This document shows positions 24,317 through 34,502 of a stretch of 64,000 nt of DNA, piece by piece (the stretch's first letter is position 1; each line of letters begins with the position of its first letter). Where the stretch lies: positions 483 through 64,482 of the forward strand of contig CALXEQ010000001.1 in assembly GCA_944387375.1 (NCBI GenBank), in the 5' to 3' direction. The notes under the pieces are model-generated. The model did not search any database. It saw only the letters and a list, made by a program, of their open reading frames with translations, and was not told where the DNA came from. The translations under genes and the position numbers were made by a program. Source of the stretch: an uncultured Clostridia bacterium (GTDB lineage Bacteria > Bacillota > Clostridia > TANB77 > CAG-465).

Positions 24317-24353
24317 AAAAGAGAATTATTTGCGTTTTTTCCTCGAAAATGCT

Positions 24354-24381
24354 TGTAAAAATTAGAAAAAAAATATATAAT
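24354..24381 (+). promoter_or_regulatory. Sigma-A promoter upstream of guaB (TTGTAA-16-TATAAT)
   Basis: ttgtaa at 24354-24359 and tataat at 24376-24381. The leader is short, with no room for a purine riboswitch. Confidence 0.5.
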
Positions 24382-24414
24382 ATACCTACATATTTATATA
24401 GAAGGAGGATAAAA

Positions 24415-25911
24415 ATGAGTAAAATATTATCAGACATCTCAAGAACATTTAGTGAGTTTTTATTATTACCAAATTTAACTACAGAAAAATGTATTCCTGA
24501 GAATGTATCATTAAAAACACCAATAGTAAAATTTAAGAAAAATGAAGAACCAAAGTTATGTGCAAATATTCCTATGGTTTCTGCAATTATGCAATCTGTT
24601 TCTGGTGAAGAAATGGGGGTAGCACTTGCAAGAGAAGGAGGAATTGCGTTTATCTTTGGTTCTCAATCTATTGAGTCACAAGCAAAGATGGTTGAAAATG
24701 TTAAGAAAAATAAAGCTGGATTTGTAATAAGTGATTCTAATGTTACACCAGACGCTACATTAAGAGATGTAGTAGAGCTTGTTGAGCAAACAGGACACTC
24801 TACTGTAATGATTACAGATGATGGAACTGCAAATGGAAAATTCTTAGGTCTAGTTACAGATAAAGATTATAGACTTTCAAGAGATAATTTAGATGAAAAA
24901 ATAGAAAAATTTATGAATCGTAAAGAAAACTTGGTTTATGCAGATGAAGGCATAACACTTAAAGAGGCAAATGATAGAATTTGGGAAAATAAAATAAGTT
25001 GTCTACCTATACTAGATAAAGAAGGCAACTTAAAATTTTTAGTGTTTAGAAAAGATTATGAAGATAGAAAAAATAATTCTAATTCACTACTAGATGAAGA
25101 AAAAAGATATGTAGTAGGGGCTGGTATTAATACTCGTGATTATGAAAAAAGAATACCTGCACTTGTTGATGCTGGAGTAGATATTTTATGTATTGATTCA
25201 TCTGATGGATATTCAGTTTGGCAAAAAAATACAATAGATTTTGTTAGACAAAAATATGGTGATGATGTAAAAATTGGTGCAGGAAATGTTGTAGATGCAC
25301 AAGGATTTAGATATCTTGCAGATGCTGGTGCTGACTTTGTTAAAGTAGGTGTAGGTGGAGGCTCTATCTGTATTACACGTGAGACTAAAGGTATAGGTAG
25401 AGGACAAGCTAGTGCATTAATTGATGTAGTAGCAGAAAGAGATAAATATTTCGAGGAGACAGGTGTATATATACCAGTATGTTCAGATGGTGGTATAGTA
25501 CACGATTATCATATAACGCTTGCTTTGGCACTTGGAGCAGATTTTGTAATGATGGGAAGATATTTTGCAAGGTTTGATGAAAGTCCAACAAGAGTTGTAA
25601 AGAAAAACGGAAGCTTTTATAAAGAATATTGGGGTGAAGGCTCAAATAGAGCAAGAAACTGGCAAAGATATGATATGGGTGGAAGTAAAACTAAACTTGC
25701 CTTTGAAGAGGGCGTTGACTCATATATTCCATATGCTGGTACTTTAAAAGAAAACTTATCAATAACATTAGATAAGATAAAGTCTACTATGTGTAATTGT
25801 GGTTCTATAACAATTAAAGAGCTACATGAAAATGCAAGACTTACTTTAGTATCTAATGTAAGTATTCGTGAAGGTGGAGCACATGATGTAATAACTAAGG
25901 ATATTGAATAA
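24415..25911 (+). CDS. guaB: IMP dehydrogenase family protein (with a CBS pair)
   Basis: [22 protein letters not shown] resembles the IMPDH N-terminus. [23 protein letters not shown] catalytic-loop region. Lies upstream of guaA. SD aggagg precedes the ATG at 24415. Confidence 0.8.
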
Positions 25912-25923
25912 GGAGTAGTACTC

Positions 25924-27459
25924 ATGGAAAAAGAAGAAATTTTAATAATAGATTTTGGTGGACAATATAACCAATTAATCGCAAGAAGAGTTCGTGAAAA
26001 AAATGTATATTGTGAAGTTGTACCAAACACAATATCAATTGAAAAAATAAAAGAGAAAAATCCTAAAGGAATAATTTTTACAGGTGGACCATCAAGTATA
26101 TATGAAACTAATGCACCAAAATGTGATAGTCAAGTATTTGAACTTGATATACCAATTCTTGGAATTTGTTATGGAATGCAATTTATGGCATATACTCTTG
26201 GAGGAGAAGTTAAAAAAGCAACTAAAAGAGAGTATGGACAAATGGAAGTAGATTTGGATAACAACTCAAAGTTATTTAAAGGATTTAAAAATAGCAATAT
26301 TTGCCTTATGAGCCATACAGATTATGTAGATAGTGTACCTGAAGGATTTGAAAAAATAGCAAAAAGTAATACTTGTAAAATTGCAGCAATGGAGAATAAA
26401 AGCAAGAATTTTTATGGTGTGCAGTTTCATCCAGAAGTAAATCATACAATTGATGGAGACAAAATAATTGAAAATTTTGTAATAGATATTTGTGGATGCA
26501 AAGGCTTATGGAAAATGGATTATTTTACAAAGACAACAATAGAAAAGCTAAAAGAGAAAATAAAGGATAAAAAAGCATTATGTGCTTTATCTGGTGGCGT
26601 TGATTCTTCTGTTGCAGCAGTACTTTTATCTAAAGCTATAGGTAATAATTTAACTTGTATATTTGTAGATCATGGTCTTCTTAGAAAAAATGAAGTAGAA
26701 GAAGTAGAAAAAATATTTACAGAAAAATTTGATGTAAATTTTGTAAAAGTAGATGCTAAAGAAAGATTTTTAAATAAGCTTAAAGGAGTAACATCTCCAG
26801 AGAAAAAAAGAAAAATAATAGGAGAAGAATTTATACGAGTATTTGAAGAAGAAGCTAAAAAGATAGGAAAAGTAGATTATCTTGTTCAAGGAACTATTTA
26901 TCCAGATGTAATTGAAAGTGGTCTTGGAAAAAGCTCAGTAATAAAAAGCCATCATAATGTTGGTGGACTTCCAGACTATGTAGATTTTAAAGAAATAGTT
27001 GAGCCATTAAGAGATCTATTTAAAGATGAGGTAAGAAAAGTAGGAAAAGAGGTAGGGCTACCAGATTATTTAGTAAATAGACAGCCTTTTCCAGGTCCTG
27101 GTCTTGCAATTAGAATTATAGGAGATATAACAGAAGAAAAATTAGATATTTTAAAAGAAGCTGACTATATATTTAGAGATGAGATTAGTAAGAATAATTT
27201 AGATAAAAGTTTAAGTCAATATTTTGCTGTCTTAACAGATACACGTTCTGTAGGAGTTATGGGAGATGAAAGAACATATGACTATATGGTAGCATTAAGA
27301 GCAGTTATAACAGATGACTTTATGACTGCAAAATTTGCAAAAATTCCATATGAGATATTAGATAAAATATCTAAAAGAATTGTTAATGAAGTTGAGCATG
27401 TAAATAGAATAGTTTATGATATAACATCTAAGCCTCCTGCAACTATTGAATGGGAATAA
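25924..27459 (+). CDS. guaA: GMP synthase (glutamine-hydrolysing)
   Basis: GATase class I domain with ICYGMQ. ATP-PPase SGGVDSSV motif. 511 aa. Confidence 0.92.
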
Positions 27460-27489
27460 AAAATATGGGTAATTTACCCATATTTTTTG
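27460..27489 (+). terminator. Rho-independent terminator after guaA
   Basis: Perfect palindrome aatatgggtaa / ttacccatatt followed by a TTTTTT run. Confidence 0.75.
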
Positions 27490-27516
27490 TATGTAAAGTA
27501 AAATCAATGAATTTTC

Positions 27517-27545
27517 TTTACAAAATTTACATAAAGTGGTATAAT
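27517..27545 (+). promoter_or_regulatory. Strong sigma-A promoter with extended -10 (TTTACA-17-TGgTATAAT) driving the 27.8-33.4 kb operon
   Basis: tttaca at 27517-27522, a 17-nt spacer ending in tgg, and tataat at 27540-27545. Confidence 0.6.
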
Positions 27546-27616
27546 TTACTTGCGTTAAAAATATAAAACTTATAATATTAATATATTATTTGGAAGGAGG
27601 AATGATATGAATATTG

Positions 27617-27676
27617 AAAAAGGAGACAGTTTAATTATGCATTTTAAACAAATTTTAGCAGTATAAAGAAAAAATA
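27617..27676 (+). CDS. 19-codon leader ORF (MNIEKGDSLIMHFKQILAV) in the 5' leader of the operon
   Basis: Near-perfect SD ggaaggagg 6 nt upstream. It lies about 70 nt after the promoter and about 170 nt before the 992-aa gene. Confidence 0.25.
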
Positions 27677-27844
27677 TTAATGTAAATTCATTATAGAATT
27701 AATATCTTAAAGTATATTTAGGATTTATAAAAAAATATTAAATTTACTAAAATATATAAAAGTAATTTAGATAATATTTTATCTTTATTATTTGCTAGTT
27801 CTTCAATGAACTTATTTTAAGTAAATTTATTGGAGGTGTTTTAA

Positions 27845-30823
27845 ATGCAACTGATAACATTAAAGGAAAAAAAGGAAGAAGTAAAGAATTTATTAAATAT
27901 GGATGCAGATTTTATAGTTTTAGATGTAGATAGAACAATAATAAATACTACATCTTGGTATCAAGCTTGTATGTGTCCAAATTTACTTATTCGTGAAGAG
28001 TTTACTAAAGATTTCAAAAAAATTAATGATCTAACTTTTAAAAATCCAACAGAGGATAAATTAAAAGTATTTAGAAAAGAAACTTTTAATTTAATTGAAA
28101 AGACTATTTCTAAAAAGTTTTTAAGAAGAATAAGAAATATTCCTAATATTAGAGGATATTTTAAACTTGGAGATAATACTAATATTTGGAGATTTTATGT
28201 TGCAGGTCTATATACAGCAAATAATTTAGTAAAGATTTATGATGATGCAATAGATTATATAAAATATGCATTTAAATATTATGGAAATAATCTAAAAGTT
28301 ATATTTTTGACTTCTGGTTATGAACCATTTATTCGAGGAGTAGTAGATGGTATAATAGCAAAGACAAATCTTAACAAAATAAACTACTCTGTAATTGGCT
28401 CACAGATATGCTTTGAAAAGTCTAAGATAAAAGAAATATTTCATATGAGTCAATTTGAAAAAGAAAAAATTGTCAAAATGATAATTAAAAATGGCGGAAA
28501 AGTAAGATTTTTAGCAGATGATTCAAAAGATAATGTTGCTCTTTTTAATATTGTAAAAAATAATGGAGGAGTAGCATTAAATATTGAACACCGAAAAAAT
28601 AGTACTAAAAATCCAACATGGAAAAGCTATATGGAAACTATAACTAAAGATTATATAAAATTTGCAGTAAAAAATGATGATTCTACAGCAGGATTAAATA
28701 AAGAAAATATAGTAATGCCTGAGTTTTTAGAGCGACTTGCTGTAAATACAAATGAAATAGGGATAGCTTCTATGAGTAGAGATAATTTTAAAAATACTTT
28801 ATCTTCTTTAAAAGAAAAAATAAAAAATGAAAAAATAAAAGAAGAGTTTGAAAGTAATGTATTAAAATTAATATTTGAAAAATCAAATACTATTTATTTT
28901 AGAGGCAAGCTGTTTTATATGTGGCTTCCACAATATTTATTTATAGACAACAGATCAATAAATGATAGATTAAAAGATCTTTTTAAAACTAGTGCTAATT
29001 TACTAAAAATAGTGTATAATGAGGGTATTATAGATGAAGAATTAACATATTATCAAAAAGTTATTGTATATTCTTTTATAGATCATTTACAAGAGGCAAT
29101 ATTATATATATTAAATTTGATTGAACAAAATAGTTTAGCAAATAACAATATTTATAATACTGAACATGATAAAATAATAGAGTTAGCACAAAATGTAAGT
29201 GATATGTTATATGCACATTTTTATGTAGATGGTATAGAAAAACAAATATTAAAAAATATCTTAGATGATTTAGAAACTCTTGAAATAGTTAAGTCATTAC
29301 CAAGATATACAGATGTATATAAGCGTATGAGAGAGTTAGATGATAATGTTACTATTTTTAAATTTGTAAAATCAATAGCAGATAAAATGTATCAAAATAG
29401 CAAAAAGTTAGATTATATTATATCTTTTCCTTATGGTGGAATAACTCTTGGGTTTGCTATGAGATCATATATGAAATTTGGCTTAAAGCAAAAAGAAGAG
29501 CCAAGACTTTTAAATAGTCATTTTAGTTCTAAGCAAAAATTAAGAGAAAAAAGAACAGAAAAAGATAAAGATTTTTCAATATTTAAATTTATACCTAAAA
29601 AATACAATTGTTATGTTGATGAAATTAAAAAAGGAAATGCTACTATTTTATTACTAGATAATAACGTTACTACTTTTAAGACTTTAGATTTGTGTAAGAA
29701 TTTCTTAACTCAAATTGGAAATGAAGTTTTTGCGGCAGTTGCGGCGGTTAATTATGATAATATAGCAGAATTTTTATTAAATAAAGAAAGTGAAAATTTG
29801 GTACCAAACTGGAGAAAAGTTTTAGATTTTTGTCCAACAGATGAATATGTTACAGCTTTTAATACATGGAATACATCCAGAAAATCTAAAATACTCCAAG
29901 ATGTATTTTATATAAAAGAGTTAGCTCAAAACATACAATTAGAAAAAATAAAAAATATGAATAAAGATTATATATTTAAAGTATGTAGAGTACAAAATGT
30001 TCAAGATTTAAATGCTATAGTTAAAAATGGTGCAAATATGATAGGAATACATGCAGTATATCCAGATAGGATAAAATACTTAAAAAATGAAATAAAATAT
30101 GAACCATTAGAAACTAATTTAGATATAGATGAAAATTTACCAATTGGTATGTTAGAACTTGAAGGAATTAGAGATATTCAAAACTATATACCAGATTATA
30201 TAAAACAAGCTGTTCTTTTTGAAAGACCTTTAAGCATAGATAATATGATAAAGTCATGTGATATGTACAATTTACCAAAAGAAAAAATATATATTCAGCT
30301 TCAGCATAGAACAAATAGAGAATATATACAAACTATAAAAAGTAACTTAAGTAAAAAAGTAATTGCAACAATAGGACTTTTTCAAAAGGATTTTGAAGAG
30401 TATTTTTGGAAAATTCATGATATTTTAGATCCAGATACAGACTATATTTTAATTGATATGTCAAAGCATCAACCAGATTTAATTTCATTTTCTGAAAGCT
30501 ATAAAGATAGTATAGATAAGGTTGCTGTATTAAATCATTTAGCACCTATTATGCAAAATAATTCTGTTCCAGTTATTATTGCAGATGATACTACTGTTTA
30601 CCAAATGGGGTGTTATTTAAAAGAAATTAGCAAATATAACATAAAAATAAAAGGAATAGATATGCAAAATAGTGTGGAATTACCATCAAATGAGCAAAAA
30701 TATCAATATGTAAAATGCAATGATAAAACATATCAAGTAAAAATTAGAAAGTCTGGTACTGAACTTGCTAAATGGGATGAATTTTTTAATAAAAATAATT
30801 ATAAATTGGAGGTAAAACTATGA
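27845..30823 (+). CDS. 992-aa multidomain protein: N-terminal HAD-phosphatase-like, central PRTase-like, C-terminal TrpF/PRAI-like TIM-barrel domain
   Basis: HAD motifs I (FIVLDVDRT), II (IFLTSG) and IV (FLADDSKDN). PRT-fold motif ILLLDNNVTTFKT preceded by FPYGGITLG. C-terminal KVCRVQNVQDLNAIVKNGANMIGIHAVYPD aligns with the TrpF KICGIT...GAD.IGFVF..SPR start. Confidence 0.55.
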   Translation: MQLITLKEKKEEVKNLLNMDADFIVLDVDRTIINTTSWYQACMCPNLLIREEFTKDFKKINDLTFKNPTEDKLKVFRKETFNLIEKTISKKFLRRIRNIPNIRGYFKLGDNTNIWRFYVAGLYTANNLVKIYDDAIDYIKYAFKYYGNNLKVIFLTSGYEPFIRGVVDGIIAKTNLNKINYSVIGSQICFEKSKIKEIFHMSQFEKEKIVKMIIKNGGKVRFLADDSKDNVALFNIVKNNGGVALNIEHRKNSTKNPTWKSYMETITKDYIKFAVKNDDSTAGLNKENIVMPEFLERLAVNTNEIGIASMSRDNFKNTLSSLKEKIKNEKIKEEFESNVLKLIFEKSNTIYFRGKLFYMWLPQYLFIDNRSINDRLKDLFKTSANLLKIVYNEGIIDEELTYYQKVIVYSFIDHLQEAILYILNLIEQNSLANNNIYNTEHDKIIELAQNVSDMLYAHFYVDGIEKQILKNILDDLETLEIVKSLPRYTDVYKRMRELDDNVTIFKFVKSIADKMYQNSKKLDYIISFPYGGITLGFAMRSYMKFGLKQKEEPRLLNSHFSSKQKLREKRTEKDKDFSIFKFIPKKYNCYVDEIKKGNATILLLDNNVTTFKTLDLCKNFLTQIGNEVFAAVAAVNYDNIAEFLLNKESENLVPNWRKVLDFCPTDEYVTAFNTWNTSRKSKILQDVFYIKELAQNIQLEKIKNMNKDYIFKVCRVQNVQDLNAIVKNGANMIGIHAVYPDRIKYLKNEIKYEPLETNLDIDENLPIGMLELEGIRDIQNYIPDYIKQAVLFERPLSIDNMIKSCDMYNLPKEKIYIQLQHRTNREYIQTIKSNLSKKVIATIGLFQKDFEEYFWKIHDILDPDTDYILIDMSKHQPDLISFSESYKDSIDKVAVLNHLAPIMQNNSVPVIIADDTTVYQMGCYLKEISKYNIKIKGIDMQNSVELPSNEQKYQYVKCNDKTYQVKIRKSGTELAKWDEFFNKNNYKLEVKL

Positions 30824-31593
30824 AAAAGATGATTGTTTTAGATTTAGATGGAACTACTTTAAGAAATGATAAGACTGTATCAGATAATACAATAAACACA
30901 TTACTTGAGTGTAGAGGGCAAGGAAATACTATATTATTTGCTACTGCAAGACCACCAAGAGATGCATATAAGTATGTACCAGTACCATTAAGAGATAATC
31001 CAATTATTTGTTATAATGGTGCGTGCATTATATCATCTGAAAAATTAAATGTTTTATACAAAAAAGAAATTCCAAAAGAAGACGTGTTAAAGGTGTTAGA
31101 CATTATAGAAAAACATGGATATAATAACATGTGTATTGAAGTAAATGATGCTTTATATTCAAATTTTGATACAACAGATTTTTTTGGTAATGCTAAAAAT
31201 TGTATAGTAGATTTAAAGGAAATGGAGTTTGAAGCAGCATATAAAGTTATTATATGTAGCAAAAAGCAAATAACAGATGATGTTATAAAGGAATTTCCAA
31301 AATCTTGTAAGGGTATAATTACAGATAATGGAACACTTTGTCAAATAATTAATAGTGAAGCTTCAAAGTGGACATGCATTGAATCTTTATCTAAAAAATT
31401 AGATATAGCAAAAGAAAATATAATAGCTTTTGGTGATGACTTTAATGATTTAGATATGATAAAAAATGCAGGTGTAGGTATTGCTATGGGAAATGCTCAA
31501 CAAGAAATAAAAAATATTGCAGATTTTGTTACAGATACAAATACAAATGATGGAGTTGCAAAATATTTAGATAAAAATATTTTAAGAAAGTAG
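30820..31593 (+). CDS. Cof-type HAD-IIB sugar/phosphoester phosphatase
   Basis: IVLDLDGTTL motif I and GDDFNDLDMI motif IV. 257 aa. ATGA start-stop overlap with the upstream gene. Confidence 0.8.
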   Translation: MKKMIVLDLDGTTLRNDKTVSDNTINTLLECRGQGNTILFATARPPRDAYKYVPVPLRDNPIICYNGACIISSEKLNVLYKKEIPKEDVLKVLDIIEKHGYNNMCIEVNDALYSNFDTTDFFGNAKNCIVDLKEMEFEAAYKVIICSKKQITDDVIKEFPKSCKGIITDNGTLCQIINSEASKWTCIESLSKKLDIAKENIIAFGDDFNDLDMIKNAGVGIAMGNAQQEIKNIADFVTDTNTNDGVAKYLDKNILRK

Positions 31594-31603
31594 GTATGAT
31601 ATT

Positions 31604-32791
31604 ATGAAGATAATTAATAGTAGTAATAGTCCATTAAAGGTGAAAGATGTAGATGTAGCTGATGTAAATATTAGTGAGTATGATAAGAATTCGTGGTTAT
31701 TAGAAGTAGATAACGAGTATTATATGGCTGTTAAAAGAAAGTTTAATAACAATGTAACAAGTACTAAAGTTATTGAACTTGAAAATGCATATTGTAATGT
31801 TTTAAAGCCAGATGATAATTTAAAATTAAATGTTCAGTATGGAGACAAAGATGCAACTATTGTAGATATGCACGGAATAGATAATTTTAGATTTGCAAAG
31901 TCTTTAGTATTTAATGATTCTACAGTAAGAAAAATTATTTTAAAGCTTAAGATATTAGAGAAGGATAAAAAATACTTTAGATTTGGTGCATCTGGTGCAA
32001 GAGAGTCAGATTTTCATCCTGGTGGTGAGGTATATGAGAGTATGCTAATTAGTGGTAAAGATACAAGTGGATATGCACAAAGTGTTAGTGGATATTTACC
32101 TCATGGTAAAGAATTTAGTAAAAGTATATCTTTATATGATAGGGATAAGAGATATCTAAGAGATGAGAGAATTGTATATTCTCATACAGCTATTTTAAAA
32201 AAATGTGAAGCAAAAGATAGAACGTCTTTATATATAAAAATTAATCCTAAAAGGGATAATGTAAGTTTTTTAGATATTTTAAATGAACTTGCTACAAAAC
32301 TTGGAATGGTATCATATGCAGTTCAAATGTGTATACAGACTAATAATACAAATGAGCATACAACTCAAATTAAGGGAAGAGTATTAAGACATATGCCCAT
32401 GAAACCATTTGATGTATTGCAAGATGCAACAGATATAGGACTTGAGCAACTATTTATTATAGATAATCAAAATATTGTTTATGGTGTTGGAACAAAGTAT
32501 AACAGATATGAACCAGAATGGAAAGAGTTTACAGGTGGAAGACAGTATGAAAGAAGAGGTCATATTCATGCAACGATTGTAAATAATAATGATGAAAATA
32601 AACATGAAGTATTTCATTTAAGAGATGCATTTATATCACAAGCATCAAATGTACAAGTTGTTTTAACACCAGTTGATACTGTTTATAGAATTTATCCTTT
32701 ATATAAAAATGGAGATAAATATCTATGCAAAGCAACAGATAAAAATATAGATACTGTACTAGAAAATATTAGAAAAATAGATAAAGTATAG
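31604..32791 (+). CDS. Hypothetical protein (395 aa), no recognisable family
   Basis: ORF in the operon with a 10-nt gap to each neighbour. No motif recognised. Confidence 0.55.
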   Translation: MKIINSSNSPLKVKDVDVADVNISEYDKNSWLLEVDNEYYMAVKRKFNNNVTSTKVIELENAYCNVLKPDDNLKLNVQYGDKDATIVDMHGIDNFRFAKSLVFNDSTVRKIILKLKILEKDKKYFRFGASGARESDFHPGGEVYESMLISGKDTSGYAQSVSGYLPHGKEFSKSISLYDRDKRYLRDERIVYSHTAILKKCEAKDRTSLYIKINPKRDNVSFLDILNELATKLGMVSYAVQMCIQTNNTNEHTTQIKGRVLRHMPMKPFDVLQDATDIGLEQLFIIDNQNIVYGVGTKYNRYEPEWKEFTGGRQYERRGHIHATIVNNNDENKHEVFHLRDAFISQASNVQVVLTPVDTVYRIYPLYKNGDKYLCKATDKNIDTVLENIRKIDKV

Positions 32792-32801
32792 GAGGTATGT
32801 T

Positions 32802-33386
32802 ATGAAAGCGTTGTGTATAAATGGAAGTCCAAGAGAAGATGGAAGTACGGCATATTTAATAGGAAAAGTTGCAGAAGGCATGAGACAAAAAAATATTGAG
32901 GTAAAAAGTTATTGCTTGGGAAAATTAAATATAAATTATTGCCTTGGATGTAAAAAATGCTATAAAGAGGGTATTTGTATACAAAAAGATGATATGGATA
33001 TTTTAATTAATGAACTAAAAAATGCAGATATAGTAGTTATTGGAACACCAGATTATTGGGGAGATGTAAGTGGACAACTTAAAGTGTTTTTTGATAGAAA
33101 TACACCTTATGCAAATACTAATGTAAATAGAATTAATATGCCTCATCCAAAATTTGGAATTGCAATATCAGTAAGAGAAGGGCCAGAAGATTTTGAAAAT
33201 ACTAATATAATTAATTCTATTAATCATTACTTTGGTCATTTGGAAATAACGCCTATTGCAAAACTTGCTCTAACAGATACATCTACATTAGAAGATTTGT
33301 TAAAAAATCAAAAAGAAAAAATAGATGAAGCTTATCAGATTGGACTCAAAGTACTAGATTTAGTAAAAACAAAAAAGAGAATTTAG
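32802..33386 (+). CDS. Flavodoxin-like NAD(P)H-dependent FMN reductase / iron-sulfur flavoprotein
   Basis: N-terminal INGSPREDGST flavodoxin-like nucleotide loop and the CLGCKKCYKEGIC cysteine cluster typical of iron-sulfur flavoproteins. SD aggagg. Confidence 0.65.
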   Translation: MKALCINGSPREDGSTAYLIGKVAEGMRQKNIEVKSYCLGKLNINYCLGCKKCYKEGICIQKDDMDILINELKNADIVVIGTPDYWGDVSGQLKVFFDRNTPYANTNVNRINMPHPKFGIAISVREGPEDFENTNIINSINHYFGHLEITPIAKLALTDTSTLEDLLKNQKEKIDEAYQIGLKVLDLVKTKKRI

Positions 33387-33410
33387 ATTTTAAATTCTCT
33401 TTTTATTTTT
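33372..33410. terminator. Bidirectional terminator closing the operon and the convergent CAP-domain gene
   Basis: Stem aaaagagaattta / taaattctctttt with flanking A and T runs. Confidence 0.65.
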
Positions 33411-33423
33411 ATATAAGTTATAA

Positions 33424-34401
33424 TTATTTTCCAATAAACATAAGAACAATAACATATCCATATGTTTCACTTTCCTCAAGACCTATTCCTATATAATTAA
33501 ATGAATTTGAAAGTATATTTTGGCTATGTTCACTAGATTTCATAAATGAATTTATTGCATCGTCTATATTATTATTTCCAGCTATATTTTCACCTGCTGT
33601 TTTGTAAGTTACACCAGCATTTTGCATCATCTCAAAAGGAGTGCCATATGTAGGAGAGGTATGAGAGAAGTAATTGTTTACTACCATATCTTGAGCTTTA
33701 GTTTGAGCAGTTGCAGTAAGTAGTGAATCTAGTGTAAATAGTGGAAGACCATTTTCTTTTCTTATTTCATTCAATTTAGATAGAATGTATTCTATATTTG
33801 CATTAGAATCTGGTGTACTTGGAGTTGTATTTTCCTGTTCATTAGTATTTTCTTGAGTAGTATTAGAATTGTTGTTTGAATCTTCTAAATTACATTCAAG
33901 AAGATCTTCTCTAATCATTCCAACTAAATTGTCTTGAGTAATTACAAGAAGAAAACTATCTATTGCACCTATTACATATACTTGATCTCCTGCATTTAGT
34001 TTTCCATACATTCTAAATGATGTTGAGGGTCCTCCTCTTACAATAGTATTATCTCCTTTAACTGTTGCATGAAATGGAGAATAATCTGTATAAGTGAGTG
34101 AAGAAATATTTTCTCCTGTTACTTTTGCATATTCTTTAGATATAATACCCACTTCATTATTTTCAAGTTGTACAATGTAAAAATTATCTATTGATCCTAC
34201 AAGCTTAATTTTAGTATTAGGATCAAGAGTTCGTATAAAAGATGAATAGTCTGTATTTGGCTTATTTCTAAGATTTACATTTGCTGTAGTTACACCATAT
34301 TCAGGAGAAAAATGAGTAATAGTTGCAGCAAATATAGTAGAAAATAAAATAACAAACATAATAGCAATTATTACTATTATAATATTTTTTGTGTTTTTCA
34401 T
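33424..34401 (-). CDS. Secreted SH3b + CAP (SCP/PR-1, YkwD-like) domain protein
   Basis: C-terminal NYFSHTSP...GENIAGN...SEHSQNIL CAP-domain motifs. Two SH3b-like segments. N-terminal signal/anchor MKNTKNIIIVIIAIMFVILF. Start set at the ATG at 34401 (SD gaggtg) rather than the track TTG at 34470. Confidence 0.7.
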   Translation of the reverse strand: MKNTKNIIIVIIAIMFVILFSTIFAATITHFSPEYGVTTANVNLRNKPNTDYSSFIRTLDPNTKIKLVGSIDNFYIVQLENNEVGIISKEYAKVTGENISSLTYTDYSPFHATVKGDNTIVRGGPSTSFRMYGKLNAGDQVYVIGAIDSFLLVITQDNLVGMIREDLLECNLEDSNNNSNTTQENTNEQENTTPSTPDSNANIEYILSKLNEIRKENGLPLFTLDSLLTATAQTKAQDMVVNNYFSHTSPTYGTPFEMMQNAGVTYKTAGENIAGNNNIDDAINSFMKSSEHSQNILSNSFNYIGIGLEESETYGYVIVLMFIGK

Positions 34402-34502
34402 TTTTTTCACCTCACTAATATTATTACCAATTTCTTCCTGTATATTATAAAAATTAGTATATTTTTCCAATTTTTAAAAAGAATATTTATGAGGTGTAAA
34501 GT

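Follow-up and report, generated by a model that had tools for sequence, protein, structure and literature searches.

A four-gene operon beside guaBA in an uncultured Clostridia bacterium pairs a divergent phosphoribosylanthranilate isomerase-type barrel with a protein of zinc-enzyme fold and may serve purine-linked biosynthesis

The 64,000-nt stretch analysed here (the window; GenBank assembly GCA_944387375.1, contig CALXEQ010000001.1, positions 483 to 64,482 of the forward strand) comes from an uncultured Clostridia bacterium and has the base composition of a Clostridia-like chromosome (~26% GC). Just 3′ of guaB–guaA lie four open reading frames (ORFs), all on the + strand and together spanning 27845–33386. 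They encode a 992-residue fusion protein (A992), a Cof-type phosphatase, a 395-residue protein (U395) and an iron-sulfur flavoprotein. The genes, and the domains of A992 that involve a phosphoribosyltransferase (PRT)-like and a phosphoribosylanthranilate isomerase (PRAI)-type unit, are as follows; PRPP denotes 5-phosphoribosyl pyrophosphate.

27845..30823, + strand: A992 gene (992 aa), read as an ORF; AlphaFold model with a pLDDT of 89.9
27902..28714, + strand: HAD-IB-type phosphatase domain (A992 residues ~20–290), from catalytic motifs and fold
28715..29329, + strand: mainly helical region (A992 ~291–495), from the secondary structure of the model
29330..29944, + strand: type I PRT-like domain (A992 ~496–700), from a degenerate PRPP loop and sub-threshold profiles
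29957..30799, + strand: divergent PRAI (TrpF)-type (βα)8 barrel (A992 ~705–985), from fold and transitive homology
30820..31593, + strand: Cof-type HAD-IIB sugar-phosphate phosphatase (257 aa), from PF08282 and TIGR00099
31604..32791, + strand: U395 gene (395 aa), with a C11orf54/acetolactate decarboxylase zinc-enzyme fold, from a fold search
32802..33386, + strand: iron-sulfur flavoprotein (194 aa) with an ISF-type FMN reductase fold, accessory, from PF03358 and a Cys motif

The junctions, read from the sequence, are an ATGA overlap between genes 1 and 2 and 10-nt gaps between genes 2 and 3 and between genes 3 and 4, exactly the tight coupling described in an earlier, model-made note on this DNA (the sequence-only reading). 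Genes 1, 2 and 4 each have a GGAGG-type ribosome-binding site ahead of them. The arrangement is not a product of chance, since the gene set recurs in relatives. Synteny was assessed at 28 non-redundant loci with enough flanking sequence, drawn from Clostridia metagenome-assembled genomes (MAGs), Bacillus pfraonensis, the B. cereus group, Lachnospiraceae, Anaerocolumna, a Bacteroides MAG, a Bdellovibrionota MAG and a Streptomyces linear plasmid. U395 adjoins A992 or its barrel at 26 of the 28 loci, and a Cof phosphatase lies within the cluster at 18; where Cof is missing, another phosphatase is usually present (HAD_2, His_Phos_1 or HD_3). Nearly every locus has a phosphatase of one kind or another. 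The iron-sulfur flavoprotein is found at six. Three loci carry the barrel as a stand-alone protein of ~285 aa together with U395 (L018, L019 and L023), and at two more A992 is split ahead of the barrel (L014 and L030). Because stand-alone and split barrels still pair with U395, the minimal unit is the barrel plus U395. The gene-neighbourhood comparison across Clostridia that the sequence-only reading had called for therefore finds the genes syntenic in relatives, as it had supposed, but its four-gene unit needs trimming: what is selected is the barrel and U395, with a phosphatase in addition, and the flavoprotein is an accessory.

The exceptions to the A992–U395 pairing are L006 and L012. At L012 (8100–9777, a single MAG) the genes after A992 encode a histidine phosphatase and an aldo-keto reductase in place of Cof and U395; this layout suggests that A992 makes a phosphorylated carbonyl compound for which reduction is an alternative fate. 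Two further loci stand out for their setting. One, a compact version, belongs to a cultured strain, Streptomyces sp. NBC_00984, and is carried by a mobilizable linear plasmid (L033; NZ_CP108736.1, 164544–172104), with Cof on the divergent strand followed by U395, A992 and genes for a PfkB-type kinase and a Cmx/CmrA-type MFS efflux pump. The other (L034; MT835751.1, 1281–9210) is a scaffold from human faeces labelled ‘UNVERIFIED: Bacteriophage sp.’, with two deoxynucleoside kinase (dNK) genes, A992, U395 and, further on, Cof and CYTH genes, a layout that matches the Lachnospiraceae MAG locus L017. A phage origin for this scaffold was considered and set aside: the 2.9 million viral contigs of IMG/VR hold no relatives of the A992 or U395 family, so the scaffold is probably a mislabelled bacterial contig.

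The barrel at the C terminus of A992 is closest in fold to solved TrpF structures, although its membership of the PRAI family is not evident from direct profile matches. None of 29 A992 members matches Pfam PF00697 at E ≤ 1, and the NCBIfam PRAI model gives A992 20 bits against a cut-off of 172. Four distant relatives bridge this gap. P0207, P0213, P0219 and P0222 are retrieved by the A992 profile in an exhaustive search with E-values of 1e-17 to 1e-26, and all four exceed the Pfam PRAI cut-off (31–48 bits against 22.7). Judged by sequence comparison, the homology of the barrel to the PRAI family is thus only transitive, via intermediate sequences. In TrpF catalysis, a Cys at the end of strand 1 and an Asp at the end of strand 6 act as the acid–base pair. 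A joint alignment shows that the distant relatives carry the textbook TrpF motifs (KxCG, LLD..GGTG, AGG and DxESGVE), and that C714 and D871 of A992, placed by the model at the ends of strands 1 and 6, correspond in these canonical relatives to the Cys of KxCG and the Asp of LLD. Both residues are invariant in 38 sequences, stand-alone barrels included. The TrpF phosphate-binding loops GGTG/AGG/SG, retained in the distant relatives, are replaced by HQPD/ADD/QNS in the A992 subfamily. Because the Cys/Asp pair is kept and the glycine loops are replaced, we regard the barrel as a divergent member of the PRAI family with its acid–base pair intact and its phosphate site remodelled, which bears out the PRAI-like barrel of the sequence-only reading.

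The intermediate sequences belong to a wider, likewise undescribed family of fusions between a helical region, a PRT domain and a PRAI barrel with canonical motifs, found without U395 (P0222 at L026 8001–11648; P0213 at L027 7236–9494); one member of this family ends in a C-terminal guanylate-kinase-like domain and has the gene neighbourhood found for P0222, which includes Ham1, NTPase_I-T, guanylate kinase, NUDIX, glycosyltransferase, short-chain dehydrogenase/reductase (SDR) and ABC genes. Other distant relatives of A992 are fusions of a helical region, a PRT-like domain and HAD_2.

U395 had been left as a protein of no assigned function by the sequence-only reading; structure prediction now gives it a fold, shared with C11orf54 (PTD012) and acetolactate decarboxylase (ALDC), both zinc enzymes. 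Its homologues fall into more than 100 clusters, all of them unnamed or annotated ‘hypothetical’. The relationship is one that sequence profiles do not reach: PF08925 (DUF1907) and PF03306 match none of 61 U395 members at E ≤ 1, and a U395 profile search of the PDB sequences recovers neither 1xcr nor ALDC. An H320-x-H322...H338 motif with ALDC-like spacing is invariant in 61 U395 sequences, as are further Arg, Glu and His residues. The invariant histidines fit a putative His3 zinc site, for which equivalence to that of C11orf54/ALDC is proposed. In 2025, C11orf54 was identified as the zinc-dependent β-keto-L-gulonate decarboxylase and explicitly related to acetolactate decarboxylase (PMC12337341, PMC12435205).

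Two separate lineages have a +1 frameshift that breaks the U395 homologue, at ~14255–14262 of L001 with the same site in L008, and at ~13915–13920 of L002/L003. Both frameshifts fall at a zero-frame CGG (GAC-[C]GG-AAG and ATA-[C]GG-TAA), and the homologous frame is regained if the C is skipped. CGG is all but absent from these genomes: it makes up none of 6408 codons in L001, none of 5979 in L008 and 1 of 17811 in the window. Most changes that separate L001 from L008 beyond the site are synonymous when read in the +1 frame, so the 3′ part of the gene seems still to be under selection. The cause could be programmed +1 frameshifting, with CGG as a hungry or unassigned codon; alternatively, the gene could be split or the assemblies could share an error.

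A992 is predicted, from its model, to be a four-domain fusion in which the barrel follows a HAD-IB phosphatase, a helical region and a PRT-like domain. The first of these, read earlier as a phosphatase, is well supported. It has the fold of HAD-IB phosphatases and their motifs: D27-V-D29-R-T31 (I), T156/S157 (II), K206 (III) and D225-D226 (IV). All 29 sequences compared share D27, D29, K206, D225 and D226, and this invariance down to 28% identity argues for an active phosphatase domain. The helical region also accompanies the PRT-like domain in stand-alone relatives of ~400 aa. The PRPP loop of type I PRTs consists of four hydrophobic and two acidic residues, three variable positions and T-G-x-T. 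In the model of A992, a strand (600–608) followed by a helix (612–623) bears ILLLD605-N-N-V-T-T610-F-K-T613, and a PYGG loop lies at 529–532; the first Asp and both Thr residues of the PRPP loop are invariant, while the second acidic residue is replaced by Asn and the Gly by Phe. Several members give sub-threshold APRT, OPRT and GntX matches precisely at this domain, and the distant relative P0222 exceeds the cut-off of Pribosyltran (PF00156; 32.5 bits against 26.3). The PRT-like domain put forward by the sequence-only reading thus gains these matches, but its degenerate loop leaves it less secure than the phosphatase and the barrel.

A992 is also rare. Its homologues form 30 clusters in an index of 5.8 billion proteins, and an exhaustive profile search of 1.84 billion proteins gave 198 cluster representatives. 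Neither A992 nor U395 matches any Pfam, PADLOC or PHROG model, and only chance matches to PDB sequences were obtained for the two with single-sequence and profile searches. A Pfam scan of all members of both alignments gave no consistent family. The NCBI PGAP labels are ‘HAD family hydrolase’ for A992 and ‘hypothetical protein’ for U395, and a Foldseek search of the PDB with the whole 992-residue model returned generic TIM-barrel matches only, with the PRT-like domain not resolved. After these profile searches and structure predictions no annotated family or pathway claims the 992-residue protein, in keeping with the earlier statement that no described pathway was known to combine such parts.

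The two remaining genes are what they had been taken for. The phosphatase matches PF08282 over residues 5–250 (E = 1e-61) and scores 179.6 bits with TIGR00099, above its cut-off of 137; it reaches no equivalog-level model, and Cof-type phosphatases give sub-threshold matches to riboflavin-pathway phosphatases. The flavoprotein matches PF03358 (FMN_red; E = 4e-20, 72 bits against a cut-off of 24), and its C47-x2-C50-x2-C53-x5-C59 motif is conserved in six homologues. A compact CX2CX2CX5-7C motif defines iron-sulfur flavoproteins (PMC3164229). The position and strand of this gene vary between loci, and it is either an accessory redox partner or an unrelated passenger.

The neighbourhoods of the cassette point to purine nucleotides. 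Genes of the gua pathway adjoin it in four lineages: (i) guaB–guaA lie 5′ of it in the window and in an 80%-identical relative (L028); (ii) guaB–NUDIX–guaA follow directly 3′ in L002/L003; (iii) guaA lies 3′ of the minimal barrel and U395 pair in L018 and (iv) in L024 an inosine monophosphate dehydrogenase (IMPDH) gene shares an operon with U395–A992–PfkB. The nucleotide function at which the position next to guaBA had hinted is therefore strengthened. Tandem dNK-like kinases stand immediately 5′ in L013, L015, L017, L022 and L034, and other distant loci contribute thymidylate-kinase-like and AAA_28 kinases, CYTH, an HD_3/YfbR nucleotidase, MGS-like proteins and two PurP-like ATP-grasp genes. 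Distant loci also include a one-module non-ribosomal peptide synthetase (NRPS; A-T-C) that is translationally coupled to A992, and ABC or MFS exporters that share operons with the cassette, so that the natural-product role once mentioned as possible has counterparts in the contexts of distant relatives. As judged from gene content, the common theme is purine nucleotide handling, with elaboration and export added in many lineages.

Elements flanking the coding region, and the two gua genes of the window, are the following.

27517..27545, + strand: candidate sigma-70-type promoter, TTTACA-17-TGgTATAAT with extended −10; 11/12 matches plus TG, the top match in the region
27546..27844, + strand: 5′ leader of ~300 nt, conserved with the closest relative L028
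27607..27666, + strand: small ORF in the leader, 19 codons, MNIEKGDSLIMHFKQILAV, with a strong GGAGG ribosome-binding site, read as an ORF
33372..33404, strand not assigned: hairpin flanked by an A-run and a T-run, candidate bidirectional terminator; 14 bp, ΔG −13 kcal/mol, z −4.4
24349–25911, + strand: guaB, from Pfam IMPDH/CBS
25924–27459, + strand: guaA, from Pfam GATase/GMP_synt_C

The promoter and terminator that had been said to bound the operon both find support. The near-consensus extended −10 site is present as described, and L028 retains an identical −35 and a near-identical −10; the AT-rich DNA here shows no general excess of promoter-like matches (38 found against 53 expected). The leader shows 88% column identity with L028, whereas the adjoining guaA terminator has diverged, and it folds better than its shuffles (z −3.9). 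L028 retains the 19-codon ORF at the same leader site despite a 9-nt in-frame indel. When conservation of the leader and small ORF was sought in relatives, both were found in L028 and in none further out. A search of the leader and the whole 64-kb window with Rfam gave no riboswitch or other RNA family at gathering score. A purine riboswitch precedes guaB in many Firmicutes; none was found 5′ of guaB here, nor any tRNA within the 64 kb. At the other end, the hairpin at 33372–33404 separates the operon from a convergent gene (33424–34470) and is a candidate terminator common to both; a scan for consensus terminators missed it because its stem holds just two G-C pairs. The hairpin of guaA's own terminator lies at 27456–27490 (ΔG −17.2, z −4.8). 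The guaB ORF (520 aa) may have its true start 3′ of 24349, because neither its homologues nor the IMPDH Pfam model align ahead of about residue 20–33. The Pfam-assigned neighbours in the window are ruvC, patatin, guaBA, CAP/SH3, DAO, spoVG and uvrC.

Taking these observations together, we propose that the locus is a biosynthetic cassette for a ribose-derived small molecule tied to purine metabolism at the IMP/XMP/GMP level, a proposal to which we give a probability of roughly 0.4. The operon anatomy, folds, conserved residues and synteny on which it is built are established, and all of its reaction steps are inferred. The PRT-like domain of A992 would take the 5-phosphoribosyl group of PRPP and attach it to an amine that retains an N-H, the leading candidate being the exocyclic amine of a purine or aminoimidazole nucleotide, to give an N-glycosylamine. 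The fused HAD-IB domain would then take off a phosphate, a step that fits the loss of the TrpF phosphate-binding loops from the barrel. With its Cys/Asp pair, the PRAI-type barrel could carry out an Amadori rearrangement to a 1-amino-1-deoxy-ribulose derivative, whose α-hydroxy-carbonyl, or a β-keto-acid, would be chelated by the His3-zinc of U395 and undergo C–C cleavage via a zinc-stabilised enediolate; decarboxylation is the sole chemistry demonstrated so far for a U395-type fold. The Cof phosphatase would finally free the product. In other lineages, where the core is joined by nucleoside kinases, nucleotidases, a one-module NRPS or exporters, the product may be elaborated and secreted. There are precedents for PRAI-type isomerases that act on purine-derived ribosylamines: Chlamydia TrpF acts on the product of GTP cyclohydrolase II on the way to dihydroneopterin monophosphate (PMC4161248), and PriA and HisG homologues have been recruited into the pentostatin and adechlorin clusters (PMC13055916).

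Several points weigh against this proposal. No member of either family has been studied, and the assignment of substrate and product rests on inference. The PRT-like domain stays below every curated cut-off throughout the A992 subfamily and, because of these scores and of the D–N and F-for-G substitutions in its loop, may only bind a nucleotide. Because stand-alone barrels pair with U395 without the PRT and HAD modules, the core must accept a pre-existing metabolite. The many invariant residues of the barrel that are acidic or polar (D866, H875, D915, D939 and E945) could mean a metal-dependent, non-Amadori chemistry, and U395 could be a hydrolase instead of a lyase. The accessory genes vary by locus, so the purine signal could partly stem from unrelated neighbouring clusters, and the window copy stands amid housekeeping genes with no exporter, NRPS or kinase.

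The setting of the window copy among housekeeping genes, with no exporter, would fit primary metabolism, namely the catabolism or salvage of a pentose, sugar acid or nucleoside by a route that needs no PRPP chemistry. The barrel would be a sugar or sugar-phosphate isomerase, U395 a β-keto-sugar-acid decarboxylase similar to 3-dehydro-L-gulonate decarboxylase, and the HAD enzymes would trim phosphates. An isomerase followed by a decarboxylase is a known catabolic logic, as in tetronate pathways. The aldo-keto reductase and histidine phosphatase that take the place of U395 at L012 would suit such a route, as would the chemistry of the only relatives by fold of U395 that have been characterised, which is the decarboxylation of 2-hydroxy-3-oxo acids (PMC12337341). 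We nevertheless consider it unlikely, since the window operon offers no transporter, kinase or dehydrogenase for the uptake or oxidation of a sugar, the family is very rare (198 representatives among 1.84 billion proteins), the barrel is specifically of the PRAI family and fused to a PRT-like domain, and relatives sit with NRPS and efflux genes. The recurrence of gua genes beside the cassette could instead reflect a pterin- or flavin-like route from GTP or GMP, with the barrel performing its Amadori step on a ring-opened guanine nucleotide (a ribosylaminopyrimidine), U395 supplying the zinc-dependent step that opens the ring or cleaves the side chain and the phosphatases yielding the free product. 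The Chlamydia TrpF precedent (PMC4161248), the sub-threshold matches of Cof-type phosphatases to riboflavin-pathway phosphatases and a GCHY-1 (FolE2-type) gene ~4 kb away in L030 all lean in this direction. That neither a cyclohydrolase nor any other pterin or flavin gene is consistently linked, that U395 has no relation in fold to known cyclohydrolases or to PTPS/QueD and that the fused PRT-like domain would have no role make this route quite improbable.

The order of a PRT, a PRAI and a decarboxylase-like protein parallels TrpD–TrpF–TrpC, and the cassette might then be a tryptophan-pathway analogue that acts on an anthranilate-type arylamine and makes an indole-glycerol-like or related aromatic product, with U395 taking the decarboxylating step. 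Cupins resembling 3-hydroxyanthranilate dioxygenase (3-HAO) do occur beside the core in L016 and L025. The barrel, however, is without the phosphate-binding loops needed for phosphoribosylanthranilate or carboxyphenylamino-deoxyribulose phosphate, the fold of U395 is unrelated to indole-glycerol-phosphate synthase, and the context is overwhelmingly one of purines and nucleotides with no other trp genes linked; there is little to recommend this analogue. Less probable again is an anti-phage defence or signalling module making a nucleotide-derived signal or toxin, a role that the sequence-only reading had allowed for. Combinations of PRTase and HAD proteins in Ter systems are predicted to make nucleoside-like signals, in a passage of PMC7824862 that cites Anantharaman et al. 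(2012); one relative has a weak PRTase_2 match, and one homologous cluster lies on the ‘unverified bacteriophage’ faecal scaffold. No PADLOC (E ≤ 0.1) or PHROG matches were obtained, no Ter, nuclease or effector genes lie nearby, the 2.9 million viral contigs hold no relatives and the site in the window is a housekeeping region and not a defence island, so that defence draws no support from any of these sources.

Within the preferred reading of a purine-linked biosynthetic cassette, a more specific possibility is that the product is a new purine-derived antimetabolite or signal aimed at guanine-nucleotide synthesis, for example an Amadori-type N-ribosyl purine or aminoimidazole cleaved by a zinc lyase; we consider this conceivable but doubtful. 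It would be made by gut Clostridia and, in versions that bear NRPS and exporter genes, by Bacillus and Streptomyces. Were this so, two new enzyme families would emerge: a PRAI-type isomerase that is independent of phosphate and a C11orf54-like enzyme, the first from bacteria, with a reaction of its own. The biosynthetic proposal in its general form would, if true, extend the Amadori-isomerase chemistry of the Trp and His pathways to a new class of substrate, give the only recently deorphanised C11orf54/ALDC fold a third function and point to a purine-linked metabolite made by gut anaerobes. The pairing of barrel and U395 is conserved across four phyla, in Clostridia and Bacilli and in Bacteroides, Bdellovibrionota and Streptomyces carriers. 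Cultured carriers exist (the Bacillus cereus group, B. pfraonensis, Anaerocolumna xylanovorans and Streptomyces sp. NBC_00984), and the question is therefore directly testable.

The cassette can be compared with several known systems. Unlike TrpF/PRAI (PF00697) and its HisA/PriA relatives, the A992 barrel has no direct Pfam or NCBIfam membership, has its phosphate loops replaced, shares its chain with HAD and PRT-like domains and pairs with U395 outside any trp or his operon. U395 differs from C11orf54 and ALDC in sequence (~12% identity), in length (~80 residues longer) and in its partner enzymes and context. The Isf family of anaerobes has the same FMN_red fold and compact Cys motif as the flavoprotein, whose association with the cassette is loose (6/28). 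Modules of PRTase with HAD phosphoesterases linked to Ter genes (predicted by the Aravind group) share that enzyme combination and a predicted nucleoside derivative with the cassette, and some distant A992 relatives are likewise PRT-like and HAD_2 fusions; there are no Ter genes here, however, the A992 subfamily has no PRTase_2 or PRTase_3 match, and the Ter modules contain neither a PRAI barrel nor U395. A parallel in logic comes from the pentostatin/coformycin/adechlorin clusters, which combine a HisG-like PRT, a PriA/HisA-like isomerase, a SAICAR-synthetase homologue and an SDR. There too a PRT and an Amadori isomerase have been recruited together to the specialised metabolism of purine nucleosides, with dephosphorylation as the last step, and L024 carries the SAICAR-synthetase and SDR pair. 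The cassette differs in that its PRT is type I-like and not HisG-type, U395 has no counterpart in those clusters and the hosts are mostly Firmicutes. A coformycin-type cluster was rejected as an identity for the locus: in a search of the window and L001–L025 the SAICAR-synthetase/SDR pair was found only in L024 and is missing from the window. Literature searches returned no description of a PRT–PRAI fusion or of bacterial U395-like proteins, and neither family has a curated model. The parts of the cassette are known folds; the pairing of the barrel with U395 and the remodelled PRAI barrel itself are new.

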